64,000 bases of DNA from a virus: the IMG/VR virus record IMGVR_UViG_3300042261_000762, positions 1-64,000 of that record; one strand, given 5' to 3'. Positions within the stretch are counted from its first letter, which is position 1. Each line of letters starts with the position of its first letter. The notes below the pieces were generated by a model. The model made no database searches. It was not told where the DNA came from and saw nothing but the letters and a program-made list of their open reading frames with translations. Shown piece by piece: positions 2,735 to 62,737 of the stretch. The position numbers were made by a program, and so were the translations under genes.

Positions 2735-3511
2735 ATGGATGACTTAACAAAAGAAATTGCGAAATGGCTTATCCAAAGCTATCCTCTTCTACTTACTATC
2801 GTTGGATTTGTAATTATCTTTCTTTATATAATAAAAGAAGTGAAAATAATATTTTTCATGAAAGGAACTGAAGATGAAACTTTTGGTAAGAAAATATTAA
2901 AATTTCTAATGTTCTGGAGAAATTGGAAAAAAGGAAACACTACAGAACCAAAGAATGTTCATTACACAGACGAAGAAAGAGAAAGAGTCGTGAATAAACT
3001 TTTGATTCATAATTTGTTTATAGCAATAAATAATATGAAAACACAAATTCCATCTATGGAATTCGGTTATCAACGTAAAAGTGAAGTTTTAAGAAGTATA
3101 ATAAAAACTTACATAGAAACAATAGAAAAGTATGCTAATCACGTATTAAAAAGTAATAAATTAGACGAATTAACTACTAATCAACTGAACGAGTTGTTGA
3201 TTGGTGAAATAGATAGAGCTCACTACGAGATTTATAGTAAAATGAAAACAAATCTTGGTGATGCTTTATATCAAAAGATAATAGAGGATCCAGTAAAAGG
3301 ATTTAAGGTTAGAAATAATATATTTAGAGAAGTTTTCGTTAATGGAATACTTTTAATATCTTCACAGGCTATGTCAGTTTATAATTATGATAATTATGAA
3401 AGAGCATCTGAGATATTAACATCTATGTATATTTCTTTACAAGTAATAGTAAGAAATTTCGAAAAAGTGTTTAAGGATTATAACGGTGAATTAGATAAAT
3501 ATTTATTATAA
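2735..3511 (+). CDS. hypothetical protein with N-terminal transmembrane helix
   Basis: Hydrophobic LLLTIVGFVIIFLYII segment. Confidence 0.75.
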   Translation: MDDLTKEIAKWLIQSYPLLLTIVGFVIIFLYIIKEVKIIFFMKGTEDETFGKKILKFLMFWRNWKKGNTTEPKNVHYTDEERERVVNKLLIHNLFIAINNMKTQIPSMEFGYQRKSEVLRSIIKTYIETIEKYANHVLKSNKLDELTTNQLNELLIGEIDRAHYEIYSKMKTNLGDALYQKIIEDPVKGFKVRNNIFREVFVNGILLISSQAMSVYNYDNYERASEILTSMYISLQVIVRNFEKVFKDYNGELDKYLL

Positions 3512-6449: not shown

Positions 6450-6536
6450 TGGTAGCGTGTATTGGATTCGAACCAATGTCCCTAACGGTTATTAGTGTCC
6501 TTACCCATTGCTGGATGTCCCCTAGACGAACACGCC
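6450..6536 (-). ncRNA. tRNA-like RNA without a normal anticodon loop; encoded CCA
   Basis: Acceptor GGCGTGT/ACACGCT-ACCA, T arm GGTTCGAATCC, enlarged D loop, anticodon arm CTAAT-aacc-GTTAG with a 4-nt loop. Confidence 0.65.
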
Positions 6537-10141: not shown

Positions 10142-10178
10142 AAATGGAAAAAATTGACTTTTTTTATAAAATATATAA
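10142..10178 (+). promoter_or_regulatory. conserved promoter block of tRNA array 1
   Basis: AAATGGAAAAAATTGAC-T-run-AATATATAA, repeated before all four leaders. Confidence 0.7.
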
Positions 10179-10226: not shown

Positions 10227-10322
10227 ATGACTTACACCAGTAAACATAGTAAACATTCATCCTTTAGCTCAAAGTGGTTTACCACATTCGGGGTTGAAAC
10301 GGAATTGCTATGTGTAAGCTGA
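10227..10322 (+). CDS. attenuator leader peptide 1 MTYTSKHSKHSSFSSKWFTTFGVETELLCVS
   Basis: 31-codon ORF; codons 5-18 are only S/K/H/F/W; contains antiterminator strand TTCGGGGTT (10287-10295). Confidence 0.85.
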   Translation: MTYTSKHSKHSSFSSKWFTTFGVETELLCVS

Positions 10323-10341
10323 TAATAACATAGTATAACGG

Positions 10342-10379
10342 AAAACCCCGAACTCAAAAAGTTTGGGGTTTTTTATTTT
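10342..10379 (+). terminator. attenuator terminator of array 1
   Basis: AAAACCCCGAAC-tcaaaaa-GTTTGGGGTTTT plus U tract. Confidence 0.85.
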
Positions 10380-10400: not shown

Positions 10401-10483
10401 ACGGCAGCAGGCATTGGTGAGCCAAACAGTCTCCAAAACTGCGACCTGAAAGGGTCCTAAGCGTTCGATTCGTTTCTGCCGTG
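10401..10483 (+). tRNA. tRNA-Trp(CCA), atypical long variable arm
   Basis: Acceptor ACGGCAG/CTGCCGT, loop ct-CCA-aa, extra arm GACC-tgaaag-GGTC. Confidence 0.75.
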
Positions 10484-10566
10484 CTAAGTTCTTTGAAATA
10501 TTGTAGTGTTCAATTCTTCTAAAAATGATTCGAACAATTTAATATATAAATAAAAAAATATATTAT

Positions 10567-13689: not shown

Positions 13690-14409
13690 ATGAAATATCT
13701 TATAGGCATACAACCAACAGGCAAACTCCATATAGGTAACTATCTTGGATGCTTAGCCAAGGGACTTAGACTTCAAAAATCTGGTCACGATGTTACTTTT
13801 TTAATAGCTAATTATCATTCAATGACTACAGGTTCATATACTGATATAACAGAAAAAGAATTAAAAAGATTAGGATGTAAAAATGTAAAACGCCAAACAC
13901 CAGAATATACTGAAAAGTTCTTTGAATTGTGTTGTAAAATGAATATAGGACAGCTTCTTAAAATGCCACAATATAAGGATAAAAAAGAAAAGGTTGAATA
14001 TGATTTAGGATTACTTTTATATCCAGTGCTTATGGCAGCAGATATTATAATAAATGATCCAGATGTTATTATAATAGGAGCAGATCAAGTTGCACACATT
14101 GAATTGACAAATGATATAGTAAAAAGAATAGGAATAGATAAACATTTTGAATATGAATATGGTGATGTAGACAAGATAATGTCTTTAATAGATCCAACCA
14201 TTAAAATGTCAAAATCATCTGGAGAAAAACACGTTCTTTATATATTCGATGAAGATTATGTAGCGAAACTTAAAAAAGCCAATTCCAACGAAGAAGGATT
14301 GAATAATCTAAGAAAAATCGGAGATTACTTCAATGTTGAAAGAAATGATAGTAATTTGAAATATAAATTGGATATAGCGAAAGTTTTAATTGATGAATTT
14401 AATCAATAG
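13690..14409 (+). CDS. trpS: tryptophanyl-tRNA synthetase, compact (239 aa)
   Basis: GIQPTGKLHIGNYLG, YPVLMAADI, GADQ..H.ELT, KIMSL.DP..KMSKS. Confidence 0.92.
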   Translation: MKYLIGIQPTGKLHIGNYLGCLAKGLRLQKSGHDVTFLIANYHSMTTGSYTDITEKELKRLGCKNVKRQTPEYTEKFFELCCKMNIGQLLKMPQYKDKKEKVEYDLGLLLYPVLMAADIIINDPDVIIIGADQVAHIELTNDIVKRIGIDKHFEYEYGDVDKIMSLIDPTIKMSKSSGEKHVLYIFDEDYVAKLKKANSNEEGLNNLRKIGDYFNVERNDSNLKYKLDIAKVLIDEFNQ

Positions 14410-14580: not shown

Positions 14581-15201
14581 ATGGACATAGATAAACAAGT
14601 TAGAGGAACTAGAATTATTCTGGAAGAAGCAAAGGAAAGAAGAATAATTCTTAATAAACTCATAGATATTGCAAATGATTATGGTTTTCAAGAAATCACT
14701 TTACCTAGTTTAGAATTATCTGAAATTTACGTAGATAAAGCGGGTGAAGAAATTCTAAATCAAATGTACACATTTAAAGACAAAGGAGATAGAAATCTAT
14801 GTCTTAGACCAGAAGGAACAGCAACAATTCAATTATTGGCTAATAAATATTGGAAAACGCAAAAAGATATTAAACTTTGGTATTTTGAAAAATGTTGGAG
14901 ATATGAAAGACCACAATCGGGAAGATATAGAGAGTTTTATCAATTTGGTGTTGAATGGTTAAATCCAAGAGAAGATGTAACTCCTACATTGATTGAAATG
15001 GCTAAAAAGATGATAGAAACTAAAACAAATGAATATACTATTTCTGAATCTGTTAAAAGAGGATTATCATATTACACAGGAGGAGTTGGTTTTGAAATTT
15101 CTGTAGATAAATTAGGTGCTCAAAAACAAGTTTGCGGAGGAGGATCATATAAAGAAGGAATAGGATTTGCTTTGGGGTTCGATAGATTAATGTTATGTTA
15201 A
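14581..15201 (+). CDS. hisS: histidyl-tRNA synthetase, catalytic core only (206 aa)
   Basis: MYTFKDKGDRNLCLRPEGTA, RYERPQSGRYREFYQFG, RGLSYYTG, GFALGFDRL; no C-terminal anticodon-binding domain. Confidence 0.88.
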   Translation: MDIDKQVRGTRIILEEAKERRIILNKLIDIANDYGFQEITLPSLELSEIYVDKAGEEILNQMYTFKDKGDRNLCLRPEGTATIQLLANKYWKTQKDIKLWYFEKCWRYERPQSGRYREFYQFGVEWLNPREDVTPTLIEMAKKMIETKTNEYTISESVKRGLSYYTGGVGFEISVDKLGAQKQVCGGGSYKEGIGFALGFDRLMLC

Positions 15202-24059: not shown

Positions 24060-24126
24060 AATGGAAAAAATACAATATTTTTATAAAATATATAAACAAA
24101 ACAACAATTATACGATATATAAAATT

Positions 24127-24204
24127 ATGAATAACATTTTACATAACAACTTACTGAACCTATTACTCCTCTTGGGGATAATTGGATTGGGTGTGTTATG
24201 CTAA
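24127..24204 (+). CDS. attenuator leader peptide 2 MNNILHNNLLNLLLLLGIIGLGVLC
   Basis: 10 of 25 codons are Leu, using five different Leu codons; antiterminator GGATTGGGT at 24184-24192. Confidence 0.88.
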   Translation: MNNILHNNLLNLLLLLGIIGLGVLC

Positions 24205-24231
24205 ATGAAGAATTTATCGCAGTAAAGCACT

Positions 24232-24266
24232 AACCCAATCCTTAAAAGATTGGGTTTTTTGTTTTT
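24232..24266 (+). terminator. attenuator terminator of array 2
   Basis: AACCCAATC-cttaaaa-GATTGGGTT plus U tract. Confidence 0.88.
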
Positions 24267-24287
24267 AACGATAAAGGAGAAAATGTT

Positions 24288-24542
24288 ATGAAAAGAGAAG
24301 AATTTATAAAATGGTTAGAAAATAGTACCGGTTTTACAAGAGAATATAACGATTGTGACGATACATATTGGGAAGAAGAAGTTGATTATGCTAATATGGT
24401 AAGAGATTATTTGGAAGTTGAAAACGATGATGTAGTATTAAGCTGGGAAGAATGGTATTGGGGTGGAATAAATTATAGAAAAGATAGATACGAATTTGAA
24501 GAGTTCATTGAAAGGTATAAAAATTATACATTGAAATTTTAA
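24288..24542 (+). CDS. acidic, Trp/Tyr-rich hypothetical protein
   Basis: ORF track; first gene after the attenuator. Confidence 0.7.
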   Translation: MKREEFIKWLENSTGFTREYNDCDDTYWEEEVDYANMVRDYLEVENDDVVLSWEEWYWGGINYRKDRYEFEEFIERYKNYTLKF

Positions 24543-24679
24543 AGATTGCTTACAGCAAAATAAAATCGACCACCATTGGGTTGAGTAGTGTAAGTGGTTA
24601 ACACGCCAGGGAGTATCCAGAGAGAACGGGAAACCTGGAGAATGTTGGTTCGAGTCCAACCTTTATAAAAAGCAATCTG
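24543..24679 (+). ncRNA. TTACAGCAA-clamp RNA enclosing tRNA-like D and T arms
   Basis: AGATTGCTT-ACAGCAA ... AAGCAATCT stem; inside are a D arm, a CCAGG/CCTGG stem and T arm GTTGG-ttcgagt-CCAAC. Confidence 0.55.
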
Positions 24680-24685
24680 TTCAAT

Positions 24686-24769
24686 GCGGATATGGCGGAA
24701 TTGGTAGACGCGCCACTTTGAGGGGGTGGTGCCCGCAAGGGCGTAGGGGTTCGAGTCCCCTTATCCGCA
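24686..24769 (+). tRNA. tRNA-Leu(GAG)
   Basis: Canonical, long variable arm. Confidence 0.95.
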
Positions 24770-24776
24770 CAAAAAA

Positions 24777-24850
24777 GGCTCCATAGGAGAATTGGTATAT
24801 CCACTTGACTTAGGATCAAGATTTTGTGGGTTCGAGTCCCACTGGGGCCA
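24777..24850 (+). tRNA. tRNA-Leu(TAG), short variable loop
   Basis: CTTGA-ctTAGga-TCAAG. Confidence 0.9.
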
Positions 24851-24855
24851 CAAAC

Positions 24856-24929
24856 GCCGTTGTGATGGAACTGGCATACATATTGAGCTCAAACCTCAAG
24901 TTTTGTGGGTTCGAATCCCACCTTCGGTA
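24856..24929 (+). tRNA. tRNA-Leu(CAA), short variable loop
   Basis: TTGAG-ctCAAac-CTCAA. Confidence 0.85.
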
Positions 24930-24934
24930 CAAAT

Positions 24935-25007
24935 GACTCTGTAGCCTAACTGGTAGTGGCGTCTGGCTTAAAACCAGAATATCTCGGTTCGATCCCGAGC
25001 AGGGTTA
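24935..25007 (+). tRNA. tRNA-Leu(TAA), short variable loop
   Basis: TCTGG-ctTAAaa-CCAGA. Confidence 0.9.
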
Positions 25008-25013
25008 CTAAAT

Positions 25014-25087
25014 GGCTCTATGGCGTAATTGCGTAGTCGCGCAAGTCTTAGGAACTTGATGTCCCGGTTCGAGTCTGGGTAGGGCCA
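25014..25087 (+). tRNA. tRNA-Leu(TAG), short variable loop
   Basis: CAAGT-ctTAGga-ACTTG. Confidence 0.85.
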
Positions 25088-25098
25088 CTAAAAAATAT

Positions 25099-26658
25099 AT
25101 GAAAATGAAAAAGTTTGTAGTTCCGATGTTTCCTTATCCCAGTGGTAATATTCATATGGGTCATATGAGAAATTACACTATATCTGATGCTATAGCTAGA
25201 TATTGGAGAAATAAAGGATATGAGGTTTGTCACCCTATAGGGTGGGATTCTTTTGGTATGCCAGCGGAAAACGCTGCAATTAAGAATAACATTCATCCAA
25301 AAGAATGGACAGACGCCAATATTAATAATATGAGAGATCAAATGAAGAGAATGAATATGTCATTTGATTGGGATAAAGAAGTCTCTACTTGTGAAATGGA
25401 TTATTGGAAATGGGAACAGAAATTTTTCATAGATGCGTGGGAAAAGGGATTTATAGAGAAGAAAATTGGTATAGTAAATTGGGATCCAGTTGATAAAACT
25501 GTAATGGCTTCCAATCAAGTTATTGACGGAAAAGGTTGGAGATCTGGAGCTAAGATTGAGAAAAAAGAAATGGTTCAATATTATTTCAAAACGACTATGT
25601 TTGCTGATGAAATGTATGAATCAATAAAAGATATTGAAAAAGATTGGCCTGAAATTATCACTAAACAACAGAAACAATTTATTAAGAACGGTATAAGAGA
25701 AGGCGATGAAGTTAGACCTTTTACAGATTGGTGTATTTCACGTCAGAGATATTGGGGAACTCCTATCCCTATGATAAATTGTCATGTTTGCGGAACAATT
25801 CCAAATAAAGATATTCCTGTAGTTCCTCCTTATGACGTTAAATTTGATGGACATGGAAATCCAATGGATAACCATCCAACATGGAAACATATTAAGTGCC
25901 ATAAATGTGGTGGTGATGCTGAGAAAGAGACTGACACAATGGACACTTTTGTTCAGTCAAGTTGGTATTTTATAAGATACATTTCTGAATTTAACGGGGA
26001 TAAATTCAATTGGGAAGAAATAAAAAGATGGTTCCCAATAGACTATTATATTGGTGGAGCTGAACATTCTACTGGGCATATGATATATGCTAGGTTTTTC
26101 TGGAGAATATTTAAGAAGATGGGTTATATTCCTGAAGAAGTTTCAATTGAACCTTTTGGTAAGGTTATAACACAAGGTATGGTAAAGAAGGATGGTAAGA
26201 AGATGTCTAAAAATTTTGGTAATGGTGTGTCGCCTGATGAAATGGTAGATAAATATGGATCTGATGTTGTGAGAATGTATATAATGTTTGCTGGTCCTCC
26301 AGAGCAAGATTTTGAGTGGATAGATGATAACATATCAGGATGTAGTAGATTTATAAAGAAATTTAGACATGGGTTTGAAAGAACAAAAGATATGGTATAT
26401 GTAGAAAATAAAAAGAATGAAGATTGGGCTAGAAATAGAATTGATATTATTCGTAAAAGAACAAATGAAGTTTATGAAAAAAATTACAAATTCAATACTA
26501 TAGTATCTACAGCAATGGAAACTTTTAATGCCATATCTAAAACAACAGATATAAATATATGGAAAGAAGGGTATGAAGTCATAATGAATGCTATTAGTCC
26601 TATATCTCCTGATGTTTGTAGAGAAATAAGAGACGAATTCCAAAATGGAAATAATTGA
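25099..26658 (+). CDS. leuS: leucyl-tRNA synthetase, minimal (519 aa; no CP1 editing domain, no C-terminal domain)
   Basis: MFPYPSG.IHMGH, GWDSFGMPAENAA, DWCISRQRYWG, DTMDTF..SSWY, KMSK. Confidence 0.95.
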   Translation: MKMKKFVVPMFPYPSGNIHMGHMRNYTISDAIARYWRNKGYEVCHPIGWDSFGMPAENAAIKNNIHPKEWTDANINNMRDQMKRMNMSFDWDKEVSTCEMDYWKWEQKFFIDAWEKGFIEKKIGIVNWDPVDKTVMASNQVIDGKGWRSGAKIEKKEMVQYYFKTTMFADEMYESIKDIEKDWPEIITKQQKQFIKNGIREGDEVRPFTDWCISRQRYWGTPIPMINCHVCGTIPNKDIPVVPPYDVKFDGHGNPMDNHPTWKHIKCHKCGGDAEKETDTMDTFVQSSWYFIRYISEFNGDKFNWEEIKRWFPIDYYIGGAEHSTGHMIYARFFWRIFKKMGYIPEEVSIEPFGKVITQGMVKKDGKKMSKNFGNGVSPDEMVDKYGSDVVRMYIMFAGPPEQDFEWIDDNISGCSRFIKKFRHGFERTKDMVYVENKKNEDWARNRIDIIRKRTNEVYEKNYKFNTIVSTAMETFNAISKTTDINIWKEGYEVIMNAISPISPDVCREIRDEFQNGNN

Positions 26659-26733
26659 AACTTTTTCTTTGATATATAATATACGAAACTATGGAGTAAA
26701 ATCCATAAAAATAAAAATAATAGATTAAAGATT

Positions 26734-26922
26734 ATGAATGGAAAAGTAAAATTTTATGATGAAAAAAAGGGATTTGGGTTCATTTTAGAGAATGAAACCG
26801 GCAAAGAATATTTTGCCCACGCAACCGGTTTAATCGACAAGATTACAAAAGATGATGATGTCGAATTTGAGATAATTCAGGGGAAAAAGGGGATGAATGC
26901 TATAGACGTTAAACTAATATAA
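26734..26922 (+). CDS. csp: cold-shock domain protein
   Basis: GKVKFYDEKKGFGFI...FAH. Confidence 0.92.
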   Translation: MNGKVKFYDEKKGFGFILENETGKEYFAHATGLIDKITKDDDVEFEIIQGKKGMNAIDVKLI

Positions 26923-26942
26923 ATCCAGTGAAAAAAAATCCT

Positions 26943-26976
26943 AAAACCCCGACAAAAATCGGGGTTTTGTTTTTTT
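26943..26976 (+). terminator. intrinsic terminator
   Basis: AAAACCCCGA-caaaaa-TCGGGGTTTT plus T run. Confidence 0.85.
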
Positions 26977-27170: not shown

Positions 27171-27254
27171 GCCGAGGTGGCGGAACTGGTAGACGCGACG
27201 GACTTAAAATCCGTTGACCGTAAGGTCGTAGGGGTTCGATTCCCCTCCCCGGTA
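27171..27254 (+). tRNA. tRNA-Leu(TAA)
   Basis: Canonical with long variable arm. Confidence 0.95.
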
Positions 27255-27383
27255 CAAGTTAGTTCTTTATTTTATTGATTGTTTTATTCGTGTAGGTCGG
27301 ACTGGACTAGGAGTCGCTACCATAGGTCCACATTGGACATTAGAGAGCCAATGTTATGTCTAAAAACCTAACATGATAAAACT

Positions 27384-28081: not shown

Positions 28082-28462
28082 ATGAAATTAAAAATGGAAA
28101 ATATAAAAGATTTCGCCGAAAAATTAGCAAATCTTACCGTATTAGAATGTTATCAATTGGCGAAGATAATGAAGGAACAATATGGTATAGAACCACAAAC
28201 AAAAGTTCTGGGAGTAAATATTTCTCCTGTTCCTATAAAGGTTGAAAAAACAAATTTTGATGTGATATTAAAATCTGTTGGAACAAGTAATAAATTAACA
28301 CTTGTTAAAACTTTGAAAGAAATGATGGGAAATAGTTTAATGGAAGCAAAAACATTAGTTGATAACGCTCCAAGCAAACTTAAGGAAAATGTGGGTAAAG
28401 AAGAAGCAACCGCACTTGAAGCTTCTCTAAAAGAAATAGGTGCAGAAATAGAAGTTCTTTGA
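28082..28462 (+). CDS. rplL: ribosomal protein bL12 (L7/L12)
   Basis: LTVLE...L...MKEQYGI, EKTNFDVILK, LMEAKTLVDNAP..LKE.V.KEEA..L...L.E.GAEIE. Confidence 0.93.
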   Translation: MKLKMENIKDFAEKLANLTVLECYQLAKIMKEQYGIEPQTKVLGVNISPVPIKVEKTNFDVILKSVGTSNKLTLVKTLKEMMGNSLMEAKTLVDNAPSKLKENVGKEEATALEASLKEIGAEIEVL

Positions 28463-33272: not shown

Positions 33273-35300
33273 ATGAATATAAAAAACAGAAATATAGGAA
33301 TAGTCGCTCATATAGATGCAGGTAAAACTACACTAACTGAGAGAATATTATATTATACTGGTCAAAATCATAAAATGGGCGAGGTACATGATGGTAATAC
33401 TGTCACTGATTTCCTTCCACAGGAACAAGAACGAGGTATTACTATCATGGCTGCTGCCGTTACTACATATTGGAATGACCATAAAATTAATATAATAGAT
33501 ACTCCAGGACACATAGATTTTACTGGCGAAGTAGAACGTTCCCTTAGAGTGTTAGATGGCGCTGTTGTTGTATTCTGTGGAGTTGGTGGTGTGCAACCAC
33601 AATCAGAAACAGTTTGGCGTCAAGCTAATAGATACAAGGTGCCGAGAATAGCGTTTGTTAATAAGATGGATAGAACTGGTGCTGATTTTTTCAATGTAGT
33701 GAATCAAATAGAAAATAGACTCAAATCAAAACCTGTTATAATTCAATTACCCGTTGGTAGTGAAGATAACTTTAAGGGTATTATTGATTTAGTAAATATG
33801 AAATACATTACTTGGAAATCAGAAACTTTAGGTGAGGAATATGAAATTTCCGAAATACCACAAGAATATCTAGATAAAGCTATTTATTATAATGAACAAA
33901 TACTAGAATCTATTTGTGAGCATAACGATGATTTTATGCACAAATACTTAGAATCAGTAGAATTAATAACAAAAGAAGAAATATTAAAAAATCTTAGAGA
34001 TTTAACAATAAATTTTAAGATAGTTCCAGTGTTGTGTGGAACAGCTAAGAAAAATAAAGGAGTACAAACTCTCCTTGATGCTATTGTAGATCTTTTGCCT
34101 TCTCCTAAAGATAGGAATTATATCAAAGCTAAAAAAGAAGGAGAAGATATAGAATTAAGAACAGAAGACGATGAGGTTTTATCTGCTATTGTTTTTAAGA
34201 TAATGACAGATAAAAATGCAGGCAAATTATCTATGATAAGATTATATTCTGGAACACTTAAAGCCGGACAAACAATTTACAATGCTAGAACAGGAAAAGC
34301 CGAAAGAGTATCTAGAATATTTACAATTCAAGCTAATAAAAAGACTGATGTTAAATCAGTTGACGCCGGTGATATTTGTGCAATAGTTGGAGTTAAAGAT
34401 ATATGGACTGGCGATACTTTATGTGAAGATAAGAAAACATTCGAATTAGAAAACATAACTAACGCCAAACCAGTTATATCCATAACTGTTGAGCCTTTGA
34501 CAAATAAAGATACAGATAAATTAAGTTTTGCTTTACAGAAACTATCAGAAGAAGATCCTACTTTCTCAATAAAAGTTGATGAAAATGGACAAACTGTAAT
34601 AAGTGGAATGGGCGAACTTTATCTTGATGTTATATTGAGCAGAATGATAACCGAATTTGGAGTTGAATGTAATACAGGACAACCAAAAGTTTCATATAGA
34701 GAGAATATAACAAAACCAGTTACTCACAGAGAAAGATTATCAAGACAAACAGGCGGTAAAGGTATGTTTGCCGAGATTGAGTATAAAATAGAACCTGTTT
34801 CAGATGAAACAAAAGGATTATCTTTCGAATGGGCAGTTAAAGGCGGCAATGTTCCAAGAGAATATATGTCAACCATAGAAAAATCTTTCAAAGATTGTAT
34901 GGTTAGTGGACCATTAGCTGGTAATGAAATAGAAAGTTTAAAAGTTACTATACTCGATGGAATGACGCACCCTGTAGATTCTAGTCCTTTGGCATTTGAG
35001 ACTTGTGTGAAAATATCATTTCCAAAAGCATACATGAAAGGTGAACCTACTTTATTTGAACCTATAATGGATGAAGAAGTATCAACTCCCGAGGAATATT
35101 TGAGTGATATAATAGGAGAAATGAATAGACGTAGATCACAAGTGATGTCTATAAACACTTTACCAGATTCTACAATATTACTTAGAGCCAAATCGCCATT
35201 GTCTGAAAAATTTGGATTTATAACTACACTTAGAACTTTATCTCAAGGTAGGGCGTCTAATAATTTAACATTTTCACATTATGAAAGGGTAGAAATATGA
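33273..35300 (+). CDS. fusA: elongation factor G
   Basis: [35 protein letters not shown]; full five-domain length. Confidence 0.97.
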
Positions 35301-46136: not shown

Positions 46137-46218
46137 AGCAACGTGCCGGAGTGGTCTATCGGGGATGTCTCATAAGCATCTGGCTTTGCCTTCGTGGGTT
46201 CAAACCCCACCGTTGCTA
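46137..46218 (+). tRNA. tRNA-Met/Ile2(CAT) with an extra variable arm
   Basis: GATGT-ctCATaa-GCATC, GGC-ttt-GCC arm. Confidence 0.85.
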
Positions 46219-46223
46219 CACAT

Positions 46224-59009: not shown

Positions 59010-59426
59010 TTGATAACGAAATTCAAAATATTTGAAAATAACACATTTAGTTTTAAGTTGGATGATATTCTATCACGAAATAGAATGCAAACAAATAGTG
59101 AAGCTGATCCTTACGGTGAAGAAGATTGGAATAATATTAATGAGGATTCTATAAAAAAAGAATTGATGGGAATAGTTTTAAATAGACACGTCGAGTTTAG
59201 AACTTTATCATCAGAAGGACCTTTATATAATAAAAAAGTTATCAAGGGTGTTGTTAAAGATGTTATTGTCAAATGGATACCCCATCATCTTGAATATTGG
59301 ATACTTTTTTTAATTAATGGTAAAAATCATTATGTTTATCCTAATTTAGATATAAAAGTTAAAGAAAATTTAATGGAACACATAGATATAGATCCTTATG
59401 GAGAAGAAAAATGGGATGAAGAATGA
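59010..59426 (+). CDS. small protein with two DPYGEExW motifs
   Basis: MITKFKIFE start. Confidence 0.75.
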   Translation: MITKFKIFENNTFSFKLDDILSRNRMQTNSEADPYGEEDWNNINEDSIKKELMGIVLNRHVEFRTLSSEGPLYNKKVIKGVVKDVIVKWIPHHLEYWILFLINGKNHYVYPNLDIKVKENLMEHIDIDPYGEEKWDEE

Positions 59427-62400
59427 TAAAGAAATTTAAAATATTTAAGATAAATGAAGGAATGTCATTAAATGACATAATATCCAAAGCTGAGAACAAA
59501 GGATACGGTGGAGATATTAGATATATCAAAAAAGATCTAGAGAATAATTTTCTTAATAAAAGAGTCAGAATATATAAAAAAGGCAAACCTTATGTAGAAA
59601 TAGATGTGGGAGCAATAGTTCGCGAAGGATTCACTTTTTATTTTGAGGCGTTGGAAGTTTTAGATATGGGAAATCGCGGCATGTATTGGAATTCTTATTC
59701 AGAAGCTGAGAAAAATACAATGATTGGTTTAGTAAAAGGACAAGATACTATTTTTATAAGAATAGACAGCGACGATGATATAGATATTATTGGTGAAGCG
59801 GATATTAAAAAGATAACAAGAAAGAAAGAACAGAGAAAATTAAGAGAATTAAAAAAAGACGTAGATCCTTATGGTGAAGAAGATTGGGGAGAAGACACTA
59901 ATAAAGTAATATCTAAATATGATATAAATAGCCCAGATGGACAAGAAAATTTATACAAAAAAGGCGAGGAATATGAAATCGAAACAAACGCAATACACGG
60001 TGATCTTATTGGAGTAAAAACAGAATTGTCATTTGGACAAAAATATGTTCATTATTTTAGAAGAGAAGACTTCAATGATTATTTTGATAGAATAACAGAA
60101 TCAATTGAAAATTTAGATCCTTATGGCGAAGAAAATTGGAATGATGATGAATCTCAGCTTTTTTTGGATTCAATTACTCGATACTTAGATATAAATGCAA
60201 AAATACATAATATTAAAGATAAATGGTATATTTATTTTGAAAAAGATGATGAATTTTATAAAATATGCAACAATGACGCTGGAAAAATACTTTTATATAA
60301 TCGCACAAATCATCATTCAATTGAATTAGTTGATAATGATATAGGTACAAAATTCGATTGGCTAAATATTAGATTAGCTATGCAAAAATTAGAACATAAA
60401 AAATCCTATGCAAAATTTCAAAATGAAAAAAGAGATTATAAAGACGTTGATCCTTATGGTGAAGAAATTTGGGCTGAAGAAGATGAATATAATTGGATTT
60501 ATATTAATGATCCATATGCTGAAGATGCTAATCCAACATTGAATTTATTAGAGCAACAAATAGGTAAATTTATTGTATTTAAGATTGATTGGACAAATGA
60601 ATATAAAGAAGGAGTTTTACAATCTGTTATGATTAATGTGCTTGGAGAAATAGAATTGGAGGTTGATAATCATTTTTATCTATTAGACGAAAGAGAAAGA
60701 ATAGGAGTAGCAAAGGAAAATATAATAACGGAACAGTATGATGAACAAGATCCATATGGTGAGGAAATTTGGAATGAAGATCCAAAATTTCAAATAGGAG
60801 ATAGAGTAGAATTTGCAAAAGATCCACCCAATAGATCATATTATTATCTGATTGAAGAATTTTTCCCGGATGATCGATCGTATAGATTGAGCATACACGA
60901 TAAAAATACCAATGAAAGATTTCCTGGTCATGTTTTGATAGATGAATTTAATTTAAAATTAGAAAATATAAAGGAAGAATTCAAGTGGAGAAATAAAAAC
61001 TATATTTATTATACTCAAACATTTATGGATAATAATAAAGTCAATAGAATAATGGAAAAAATTAGTCCTGAATGGATTACTAATAATCCTGTGGCTTTTG
61101 AAACATACAATAATAAATTATACTTAACTGAGGGACATCATAGATTTGAGGCTTGTTTAAGAAAGAATGATAAAAATTTATTAGAAACTTTATTTAAAAC
61201 TGCTTTATATTATCCAGTGAAAAGAGAACCTAGAAAATTTAAGAAAAAATATATTCCTGAAGATATTAAAATGATAAAAGAAAATAAAGAAATAACAGAC
61301 GAAAAGATAAAAGCAACCATTGATTTTATTTCTAAAACAATAAAAGGCACTGAATGGGAAGGTAAAGTTTATATGGCTGGCGGCGGCGTTAGAGACGAAC
61401 TCATGGGCAGAACTTCAAAAGATATAGATTTACTTATTAATGTACCAGACGGCGGAATAAACTTTGCTATATGGTTTACAAAGAAATTGAAAATATACAG
61501 AGAAGATAAAAATCCTGTTATCTATCCAAGATTTGGAACCGCTAAATTTACTCTAAGAAAACAAAAACATAACGGATTAGATTTATCAGGAATTGATATT
61601 GAATGTGTTATGCCAAGAAAAGAAACTTATACTGAAGGAAGTAGAGATCCAGAGGTAAGTCAAGGCACACTTAAAGATGATGTCGATAGGAGAGATTTTA
61701 CAGTTAATAGTTTGTTGAAAGATTTATCTACTGGGGAAATTCTAGACTTAACAGGAATGGGTAAAGAAGATATTAAAAGGGGAATAGTGAGAACTTCACT
61801 TAATCCTGATGTTATTTTTACTGAAGATCCTTTAAGAATGTTAAGAGCTATAAGATTCACAGTTAAATGTGATTGGGATTTACCTTTATTTATGATTAGA
61901 GCCTTAAAGAAGAACGCAAAACAACTTCAAATAATATCTTCAGAGAGAGTTCAAGATGAATTGAACAAAATGTTATTAACAGGTCATCCTGATAAGGCTA
62001 TAAGATTACTTCAGATAACGGGGTTGAGTAAATATATTTTCCCTGAACTTGATAAACTTATAAAAATGAAACAAAACAAGCATCATAAATATGATGCTAT
62101 GCGTCATTCTTTAGAAGTATTAAAGAATACTCCTCCAGATCTTGTAACAAGATTGTCTGCTTTATTACACGATATAGGTAAAAGTAAAACAAGAGAAATA
62201 ATTGATAATGAAGTTCATTTTTATGAGCATGAAAGGATTGGCGCATTTATGGTAAGGGATATATTAAAAAGGTTGAGATATCCAAAAGAAATAATAAATG
62301 CTGTTGTTATTGCAGTTGAAAATCACATGAAAACAAAACAGTCTGGAGATAAGGGAGATTTAAGTGATAGATCTTTAAGAAAATTGAAACAAGATTTGGG

Positions 62401-62737
62401 TCCACATCTTCAACAAACATTAGATTTAATTCACGCTGATAATATATCACATTCAGAAGAATCTAACATGCCAAATCAAGTAACTAATATCTTAAAAAGA
62501 TTTGCTGATTTGGAAGAAAGAGATAAACAAAAACAAAAACCAAATCCTTTAACTGGCAGCGAAGTAATGAAAATACTTGATATTAAAGAAGGACCAAAGG
62601 GTCCAGAAGATTCTAAAATGCGTCCTATTGTAGGAAAAATATTAAGATTATTGGGCGATATGTATTTAGATGACCCACATATGAGTAAAGAAGAATTAAC
62701 TGAAATAGTCAAAAAATCATACGAAGAATATAAATGA
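59423..62737 (+). CDS. cca: CCA-adding enzyme (class II nucleotidyltransferase plus HD) with an N-terminal string of DPYGEE modules (about 620 aa)
   Basis: GGGVRD..G..SKDIDL, FGTA, DVDRRDFTVN, EDPLRMLRAIRF, ERVQDEL.K, LLHDIGK; ParB-like EGHHRF..C upstream. Confidence 0.92.
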   Translation: MIKKFKIFKINEGMSLNDIISKAENKGYGGDIRYIKKDLENNFLNKRVRIYKKGKPYVEIDVGAIVREGFTFYFEALEVLDMGNRGMYWNSYSEAEKNTMIGLVKGQDTIFIRIDSDDDIDIIGEADIKKITRKKEQRKLRELKKDVDPYGEEDWGEDTNKVISKYDINSPDGQENLYKKGEEYEIETNAIHGDLIGVKTELSFGQKYVHYFRREDFNDYFDRITESIENLDPYGEENWNDDESQLFLDSITRYLDINAKIHNIKDKWYIYFEKDDEFYKICNNDAGKILLYNRTNHHSIELVDNDIGTKFDWLNIRLAMQKLEHKKSYAKFQNEKRDYKDVDPYGEEIWAEEDEYNWIYINDPYAEDANPTLNLLEQQIGKFIVFKIDWTNEYKEGVLQSVMINVLGEIELEVDNHFYLLDERERIGVAKENIITEQYDEQDPYGEEIWNEDPKFQIGDRVEFAKDPPNRSYYYLIEEFFPDDRSYRLSIHDKNTNERFPGHVLIDEFNLKLENIKEEFKWRNKNYIYYTQTFMDNNKVNRIMEKISPEWITNNPVAFETYNNKLYLTEGHHRFEACLRKNDKNLLETLFKTALYYPVKREPRKFKKKYIPEDIKMIKENKEITDEKIKATIDFISKTIKGTEWEGKVYMAGGGVRDELMGRTSKDIDLLINVPDGGINFAIWFTKKLKIYREDKNPVIYPRFGTAKFTLRKQKHNGLDLSGIDIECVMPRKETYTEGSRDPEVSQGTLKDDVDRRDFTVNSLLKDLSTGEILDLTGMGKEDIKRGIVRTSLNPDVIFTEDPLRMLRAIRFTVKCDWDLPLFMIRALKKNAKQLQIISSERVQDELNKMLLTGHPDKAIRLLQITGLSKYIFPELDKLIKMKQNKHHKYDAMRHSLEVLKNTPPDLVTRLSALLHDIGKSKTREIIDNEVHFYEHERIGAFMVRDILKRLRYPKEIINAVVIAVENHMKTKQSGDKGDLSDRSLRKLKQDLGPHLQQTLDLIHADNISHSEESNMPNQVTNILKRFADLEERDKQKQKPNPLTGSEVMKILDIKEGPKGPEDSKMRPIVGKILRLLGDMYLDDPHMSKEELTEIVKKSYEEYK

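Follow-up and report, generated by a model that had tools for sequence, protein, structure and literature searches.

A leucine-free leucyl-tRNA synthetase core encoded with leucine tRNA genes behind a putative attenuator in a huge-phage fragment

We analysed the first 64 kb (64,000 nucleotides, further referred to as the window) of the 104-kb IMG/VR virus record IMGVR_UViG_3300042261_000762, in which a gene for a reduced leucyl-tRNA synthetase (mini-LeuRS) follows a row of leucine tRNA genes. We propose, with a probability of roughly 0.6, that positions 24127-26969 constitute a leucine-decoding operon that senses Leu-tRNA. It would consist of a leader with attenuator, five tRNA-Leu genes (one class II and four type I, i.e. 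short) and a 519-aa LeuRS serving any tRNA-Leu. The enzyme is most likely active, free of editing, possible to make without charged tRNA-Leu and induced when Leu-tRNA runs short; its catalytic activity, substrate range and regulation are read here from sequence and context. An initial annotation of the locus had seen in it a co-evolved, possibly orthogonal set of a LeuRS and four adjacent short tRNA-Leu. It had overlooked two class II tRNA-Leu genes, the absence of leucine from the enzyme, the leucine leader with its attenuator, and a tryptophan-free TrpRS and histidine-free HisRS encoded in the same window.

A leucine-free LeuRS core under purifying selection

Not a single leucine occurs among the 519 residues of mini-LeuRS. 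Since the median open reading frame (ORF) of this phage contains 7.4% leucine and the next lowest one 2.6%, the chance of such a composition is about 1e-17. This feature is common to the whole clade: leucine count is 0-2 in 47 of 47 members, as against about 7% leucine in the nearest cellular LeuRS. At 32 positions that are leucine in three Campylobacterota LeuRS, the window enzyme has I (8), M (7), F (7), V (2) or other single residues.

Mini-LeuRS matches PF00133 (Pfam, E 5.7e-45) and, among solved structures, bacterial LeuRS (phmmer, E 5e-136), aligned in three blocks. With respect to Neisseria gonorrhoeae LeuRS (877 aa), query residues 2-196, 207-363 and 365-514 correspond to residues 33-226, 429-585 and 632-795, respectively. 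The first gap, in which query 196-207 spans N. gonorrhoeae 226-429, coincides with the connective peptide 1 (CP1) editing domain (about 227-428). Only about 10 residues stand in its place (NGIREGDEVRPF, then DWCISRQRYWG), and no match to the PF13603 editing domain was found in mini-LeuRS by Pfam. The second gap (query 363-365 against 585-632) removes the leucine-specific domain (46 residues, 586-631), which is replaced by K-K-D-G directly ahead of KMSKN. At its end, the protein stops at the equivalent of residue ~795 of 877, so that the C-terminal domain (796-877) is gone. Loss of CP1 and of the C-terminal domain had been correctly recognised in the initial annotation; that of the leucine-specific domain had escaped it. 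The predicted insensitivity to editing-site inhibitors follows trivially, because benzoxaboroles bind the editing site (as in structures among our Foldseek matches) and, with CP1 missing, there is no such site. About 27 N-terminal residues, kept by most family members, are also missing from the window protein.

The catalytic core is preserved. In an alignment of 27 family members, the HIGH motif (HMGH, residues 19-22) has H19, G21 and H22 invariant, and so are K368-M369-S370-K371 of the KMSKN motif (368-372), the MFPYPSG and EH..GH motifs of the leucine pocket, the DWC.SRQRYWG peptide and Cys228/231/267/270 of the ZN1 zinc insertion. For E. coli LeuRS, contact of the DWC.SRQRYWG peptide with A73 has been reported (PMC6614811). 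The helical anticodon-binding domain is retained. Mini-LeuRS thus has the HIGH/KMSKS signatures and zinc insertion of a bacterial-type LeuRS and lacks its CP1, leucine-specific and C-terminal domains. An AlphaFold2 (AF2) model of the protein has a pLDDT (predicted local distance difference test) of 89.3 and resembles bacterial LeuRS with Foldseek query TM-scores (TMq) of 0.85-0.89. Comparison with an 86%-identical orthologue revealed strong purifying selection: pN (nonsynonymous) is 0.08 and pS (synonymous) 0.74, with synonymous sites saturated. As pN is far below pS, we rejected the possibility that the gene is a pseudogene.

We identified about 47 clusters of related proteins in huge phages (510-547 aa, 61-78% identity to the window enzyme, contigs up to 549 kb). 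Three clusters, P0039-P0041 (645-647 aa), are likewise leucine-free and lack the leucine-specific and C-terminal domains, yet a shortened CP1 of about 125 aa remains in them, including the Thr-rich and GTG..VP..D.RD editing-site motifs. A quick tree places the leucine-free clade as monophyletic, on a long stem, beside the sampled Campylobacterota LeuRS, with P0039-P0041 nested within. The search was unfinished and amino-acid make-up is uneven across rows, hence the tree is used for clade monophyly and P0039-P0041 nesting only. Because P0039-P0041 are nested inside a CP1-less clade, their CP1 module implies repeated loss or regain of CP1.

In a second, distant family, "micro-LeuRS" (about 420 aa), the zinc insertion is lost too, and leucine content is normal (4-8%). 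This family is common in other huge phages (L003:4989-6257, loci L009-L065; contigs up to 608 kb) and often adjoins mixed short and long tRNA-Leu genes.

If active, mini-LeuRS, with neither CP1 nor leucine-specific nor C-terminal domain, would exceed all known natural LeuRS in its degree of reduction. It would then reveal the way in which a class Ia core on its own binds tRNA, and would be a natural template from which to develop small synthetases.

The predicted attenuator and cognate-depleted synthetases

The leader peptide ORF (MNNILHNNLLNLLLLLGIIGLGVLC) contains leucine codons at 10 of its 25 positions. These are of five kinds (TTA four times, CTC and TTG twice each, CTA and CTG once each), and the rare CTC and CTG are enriched; leucine codons of the phage are TTA 51%, CTT 19%, TTG 14%, CTA 10%, CTC 4% and CTG 2%. 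Together with the intrinsic terminator and an antiterminator that excludes it, all within 24127-24256, the leader forms what appears to be a classical attenuator arrangement. In the minimum free energy (MFE) fold, the antiterminator segment GGATTGGGT is paired with the leucine-codon stretch instead (z -4.3).

When charged tRNA-Leu is scarce, ribosomes would stall at the leucine codons of the leader. Stalling would free GGATTGGGT to pair with the 5' arm of the terminator, allowing read-through into the tRNA and synthetase genes. Since LeuRS mRNA has no leucine codon, the enzyme could be translated even without Leu-tRNA and would then recharge tRNA-Leu. Most likely, the catalytic core without proofreading recognises A73 and the tRNA core.

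Similar organization was observed in related phages. A leader with a run of leucine codons and a terminator precede the tRNA-Leu arrays of L002 (terminator 3412-3441) and L005 (3873-3910), with differing sequences. In L008, leaders with leucine runs precede both tRNA-Leu and LeuRS (the terminator scan covered L002 and L005). L002 is LR756501.1, the complete 735-kb genome of an uncultured phage, whose LeuRS is 86% identical to that of the window. Between its tRNA-Leu array and LeuRS gene lies an ORF of 256 aa (L002:4219-4989) that overlaps the start of the LeuRS gene and has a GIY-YIG-like N-terminal motif, as judged by eye; the window has no such ORF.

A second unit of like design was found at window 10227-10374. 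Its 31-codon leader abounds in codons for Ser, Lys, His, Phe and Trp. It has a 15-bp terminator behind it and lies upstream of a Trp/His/Phe/Lys/Ser tRNA array and of the genes for a TrpRS-like protein without tryptophan and a HisRS-like protein without histidine. Both leaders are preceded by a promoter-like TGGAAA-N16-TAAAAT sequence (10145-10172 here, 24062-24089 at the leucine leader). Zero histidine was also found in 105 of 120 mini-HisRS clusters. Absence of the cognate amino acid from three synthetases points to a design rule by which synthesis of an enzyme does not depend on the enzyme's own product. Tentatively, and with somewhat less than even confidence, we extend this to huge phages in general: they may carry self-starting translation-rescue modules, each composed of a cognate-purged synthetase and tRNAs under a leader responsive to shortage of the same tRNAs in charged form. 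Their function would be to rebuild charging once host synthetases or tRNAs have been disabled, either by host defence or by the phage, and stripping of the synthetase to its core would be part of the design.

A tRNA gene at window 10401-10484 has a CCA (Trp) anticodon (84 nt, long paired variable arm, G73). It is a class II tRNA with a Ser-like body and a Trp anticodon.

Leucine tRNAs of two shapes and alternative explanations

ARAGORN and Rfam confirmed the four adjacent tRNA-Leu genes with variable loops of 4-5 nt that had been noticed initially. They are 74-75 nt long and score 47.7-64.5 bits in Rfam (gathering threshold 29). Only 7 nt separate the first of them from the end of class II tRNA-Leu(GAG), and this first one has a 3-bp D stem and a D loop as in class II tRNA-Leu. 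A second class II gene follows the closing terminator. Taken together, the six tRNA-Leu genes read all leucine codons: UAG and CAA are provided by short tRNAs only, GAG by a long one only and UAA by both. In L002 and L005 the mix of short and long genes is different and the anticodon sets are again complementary.

To characterise the short tRNAs, 29 of them were aligned, drawn from the window and 13 other loci. The cloverleaf is 92.6% paired and compensatory changes occur in 19 of 21 pairs; pair 13:22 is never formed, likewise in class II tRNA-Leu. A73 is present in 29/31 short and 49/49 long tRNA-Leu, A15:U48 in 25/31 and 49/49 (75/211 in other isotypes), and U8:A14 in 31/31 short ones. Both shapes thus have a common bacterial leucine identity set. 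Among the other 315 of 316 phage tRNAs, the nearest relatives of the short ones are tRNA-Leu, class II included. With their leucine anticodons, 4-5-nt variable loops, covarying cloverleaf and A73, they are type I tRNA-Leu. Alanine or serine identity was rejected, as there is neither G3:U70 nor a long arm, and leucine anticodons are ill-suited to synthetases that read the anticodon. In E. coli, A73, U8:A14 and A15:U48 are published leucine identity elements and the long arm is reported to be dispensable (PMC9976931). The view of the initial annotation that bacterial tRNA-Leu belong to class II holds with a published exception, Streptomyces type I tRNA-Leu(CAA) (PMC6614811).

We wondered if the enzyme and the short tRNAs also occur together in other phages. 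Eighteen distinct reduced-LeuRS loci with tRNA-Leu within 10 kb were found in huge phages. A short tRNA-Leu is present in 13 of the 18, in all 13 cases along with a class II one, and the remaining five have class II tRNA-Leu only. Among the matches listed from a metagenome scan, most were full-length cellular LeuRS, and they contributed nothing on co-occurrence. BLASTN search with the short array matched 371 phage records, the majority of them T5-like. The sequence matched in T5_ev212 and Aeromonas phage TS3 is an annotated tRNA-Leu(UAA) with a 74-nt body plus CCA, 5-nt variable loop and A73; no LeuRS match was found in these two phages with a query that was positive in other records. Similarly, both tRNA-Leu among the 25 tRNAs of G001 (332 kb, 99% complete) are short and no LeuRS was found in this genome. 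Conversely, G006 (185 kb, 86% complete) encodes a leucine-free mini-LeuRS, 67% identical to that of the window, and no tRNA genes were found in it. From this two-way dissociation, short tRNA-Leu appear to function with host LeuRS, and mini-LeuRS with host (class II) tRNA-Leu. T5-like phages have no LeuRS, therefore their tRNA-Leu must rely on the host enzyme. On this reading, short tRNAs are neighbours of mini-LeuRS and not its private substrates. They are of a type I kind that is widespread in phages and, unlike the class II genes of this fragment, supply the UAG and CAA anticodons. With A73 and the tRNA core common to short and long tRNA-Leu, either shape of phage tRNA-Leu is probably a substrate of mini-LeuRS, and so is host tRNA-Leu.

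Of the set proposed initially, a real, constrained enzyme without an editing domain and the adjacency of reduced LeuRS and tRNA-Leu genes in 18 huge-phage loci have stood up, and a co-evolved, exclusive pairing has not. In an orthogonal pair, mini-LeuRS would have shed the modules touching the variable arm since arm-less tRNAs, which host LeuRS cannot charge, are its true substrates. Such a scenario agrees with published properties of these modules: tRNAs whose variable-arm loop is large are preferred through the leucine-specific domain (PMC3643597), and nucleotides of the variable arm are contacted by the C-terminal domain (PMC3561953, PMC6614811). It also agrees with the failure of E. coli LeuRS to charge Streptomyces type I tRNA-Leu(CAA) in vitro (PMC6614811) and with the finding of short tRNA-Leu at most 10 kb from a reduced LeuRS gene at 13 separate phage loci, involving both reduced-LeuRS families. 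Nevertheless, orthogonality is unlikely given that short tRNA-Leu occur without LeuRS (T5-like phages, G001) and mini-LeuRS without tRNA (G006), that class II tRNA-Leu accompany the short ones wherever these lie beside a reduced LeuRS and stand without them at five such loci, and that identity nucleotides are the same in both shapes. A kinetic preference is possible because of the same failure of E. coli LeuRS and because the lost domains, in full-length enzymes, contact or sense the variable arm (PMC3643597, PMC3561953).

The operon model itself has to face several points that weigh against it. The C-terminal domain is reported to be crucial to tRNA binding and charging by bacterial LeuRS (PMC3561953), and in the phage enzyme it is lost without known compensation. 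Neither CP1 nor the C-terminal domain was found encoded in trans in five phage records searched, including the complete 735-kb LR756501, and residues 745-819 of Nautilia LeuRS had no match in these five records. The attenuator model is built from sequence and folding, only about 32% of the window's own genome is assembled, and tRNA genes of G006 could sit in its missing part. As E. coli LeuRS failed on the Streptomyces tRNA, host charging of short phage tRNA-Leu is read from gene distribution only.

Loss of the C-terminal domain and absence of a trans-encoded one would also suit a protein that is not a self-sufficient charging enzyme, making Leu-AMP only, needing an unknown partner, or protecting against toxins directed at LeuRS in the role of a decoy or immunity copy. 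Self-immunity copies of LeuRS do exist, such as AgnB2 of Agrobacterium K84 (PDB 5ah5), which is among the phmmer structure matches. We give such a function a small chance: KMSKS, the A73-contact peptide and the anticodon-binding domain are all invariant or conserved, the gene shares an operon with tRNA-Leu genes behind a leader predicted to sense Leu-tRNA, the family is widely retained in huge phages, and removal of leucine codons is best explained if the product of the enzyme is Leu-tRNA. The leucine-free make-up could alternatively be a by-product of editing loss, as an error-prone LeuRS would make leucine codons unreliable and its gene would avoid them. Mini-LeuRS indeed has no CP1, and the CP1-less LeuRS of Mycoplasma mobile is described as lacking post-transfer editing (PMC3643597). 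This explanation is very improbable, for other genes of the phage contain about 7% leucine, P0039-P0041 keep a short CP1 and are equally leucine-free, and HisRS and TrpRS are likewise depleted of their cognate amino acids without a comparable editing issue. An active, leucine-free enzyme that serves tRNA-Leu of either shape remains our preferred interpretation. No paper on phage mini-LeuRS, leucine-free or cognate-free synthetases or phage type I tRNA-Leu was found in a search that covered few subscription journals and no older work on T5 tRNA.

Genomic setting and known counterparts

With 86% identity of its LeuRS to that of a 735-kb phage and with other translation genes present, the window is a piece of a huge (Mahaphage-like) phage rich in translation machinery. 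Its GC content is about 29% and it contains 40 tRNA genes. Features of the operon and selected translation genes are listed in Table 1. The CCA end is not encoded in tRNA-Leu genes of the window. A T-arm matching that of the tRNA-like element upstream of the array precedes the L002 array too (L002:3576-3592). Two further tRNA genes are unusual: an 83-nt tRNA-Met(CAT) whose variable region of 13 nt is unpaired (window 46137-46219) and a tRNA-like gene with a four-base anticodon called by ARAGORN (window 6450-6536).

Table 1. Features of the leucine locus and translation-related genes elsewhere in the window
Feature	Position in window	Strand	Evidence and remarks
TrpRS-like protein, 239 aa, 0 Trp	13690-14409		PF00579
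HisRS-like protein, 206 aa, 0 His	14581-15201		PF13393
Leader peptide ORF, 25 codons	24127..24204	+
Antiterminator strand GGATTGGGT	24184..24192	+	Read from sequence; perfect complement of ACCCAATCC (24233-24241) in terminator 5' arm
Intrinsic terminator	24232..24266	+	9-bp stem 24232-24256, then T run
84-aa ORF between attenuator and tRNA array	24288..24542	+	No Pfam match
tRNA-like element, weak acceptor stem, oversized anticodon-region loop	24579..24668	+	Rfam RF00005, 35.6 bits (gathering 29); missed by ARAGORN
Class II tRNA-Leu(GAG), 85 nt, long variable arm, A73	24686..24770	+	ARAGORN, Rfam
Short (type I) tRNA-Leu(UAG), 5-nt variable loop, A73	24777..24851	+	ARAGORN, Rfam
Short tRNA-Leu(CAA), 5-nt variable loop, A73	24856..24930	+	ARAGORN, Rfam; two U.U acceptor-stem mismatches
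Short tRNA-Leu(UAA), 4-nt variable loop, A73	24935..25008	+	ARAGORN, Rfam; 95% identical to L002:4012-4085
Short tRNA-Leu(UAG), 4-nt variable loop, A73	25014..25088	+	ARAGORN, Rfam; 96% identical to L002:4090-4164
Mini-LeuRS, 519 aa, zero Leu	25099..26658	+	ORF call, Pfam, phmmer, AF2/Foldseek
Cold-shock-domain protein, 62 aa, final gene 5' of closing terminator	26734..26922	+	PF00313, E 7.7e-15
Bidirectional terminator-like hairpin closing the unit	26942..26969	+
Second class II tRNA-Leu(UAA), 85 nt, 3' of closing terminator	27171..27255	+	ARAGORN, Rfam
Ribosomal protein bL12	28082-28462		Phage-encoded
EF-G	33273-35300		Phage-encoded
1104-aa protein, CCA-adding/poly(A) polymerase head and HD domain	59423-62737

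Leader-peptide transcription attenuation of an amino-acid operon is known from the E. coli leu operon. The phage unit resembles its leader in having a short ORF with a run of leucine codons including rare ones, an intrinsic terminator and an alternative antiterminator. It differs in being phage-borne and placed to control tRNA genes and a synthetase, not biosynthetic enzymes; moreover, the enzyme under its control contains none of the codons that are sensed.

The closest parallel to the enzyme is Mycoplasma mobile LeuRS (PDB 3ziu; PMC3643597), a natural bacterial-type LeuRS without CP1, to which an alignment had been suggested in the initial annotation. The two proteins align over query 3-510 with E 4e-88 and 31% identity (Foldseek TMq 0.85, target TM-score (TMt) 0.72). 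In both, CP1 is absent and a tetrapeptide replaces the leucine-specific domain, GKDG in M. mobile (PMC3643597) and KKDG in the phage; the M. mobile enzyme is active despite these losses (PMC3643597). However, M. mobile LeuRS (637 aa) continues for about 86 residues past the aligned region, at the site of the C-terminal domain, where the phage enzyme stops, so that the latter is not simply a minimal LeuRS of the M. mobile kind. The phage clade is furthermore leucine-free, phage-borne and situated behind a leucine leader, and the two are not close relatives.

As for the tRNAs, counterparts are found in T5-like and Aeromonas phages. Their tRNA-Leu(UAA) (LR597659.1 36049-36125; OP820700.1 75706-75782) has the same 74-nt body, 5-nt variable loop, A73 and G1.U72, and its D loop and T arm are nearly those of the first two short tRNAs of the window, the identity being about 80-82% across 62-63 aligned nt. 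In contrast to the window, T5-like phages encode no LeuRS and their gene includes the CCA end. The textbook view that only class II tRNA-Leu are used in bacterial systems is called into question by the short tRNA-Leu that T5-like and huge phages have in common.

That tRNA-Leu with a variable loop of only 4-5 nt can be leucylated is evident from Streptomyces coelicolor LeuRS, used with both type I tRNA-Leu(CAA) and type II tRNA-Leu (Fan et al. 2019, PMC6614811), and from human mitochondrial LeuRS, used with type I tRNA-Leu. Both are full-length enzymes, unlike mini-LeuRS. In S. coelicolor, charging of type I tRNA is assigned to the leucine-specific domain (PMC6614811), which is missing in the phage enzyme, and tRNA-Leu identity is reported to be independent of A73 (PMC6614811), whereas A73 is nearly invariant in phage tRNAs.

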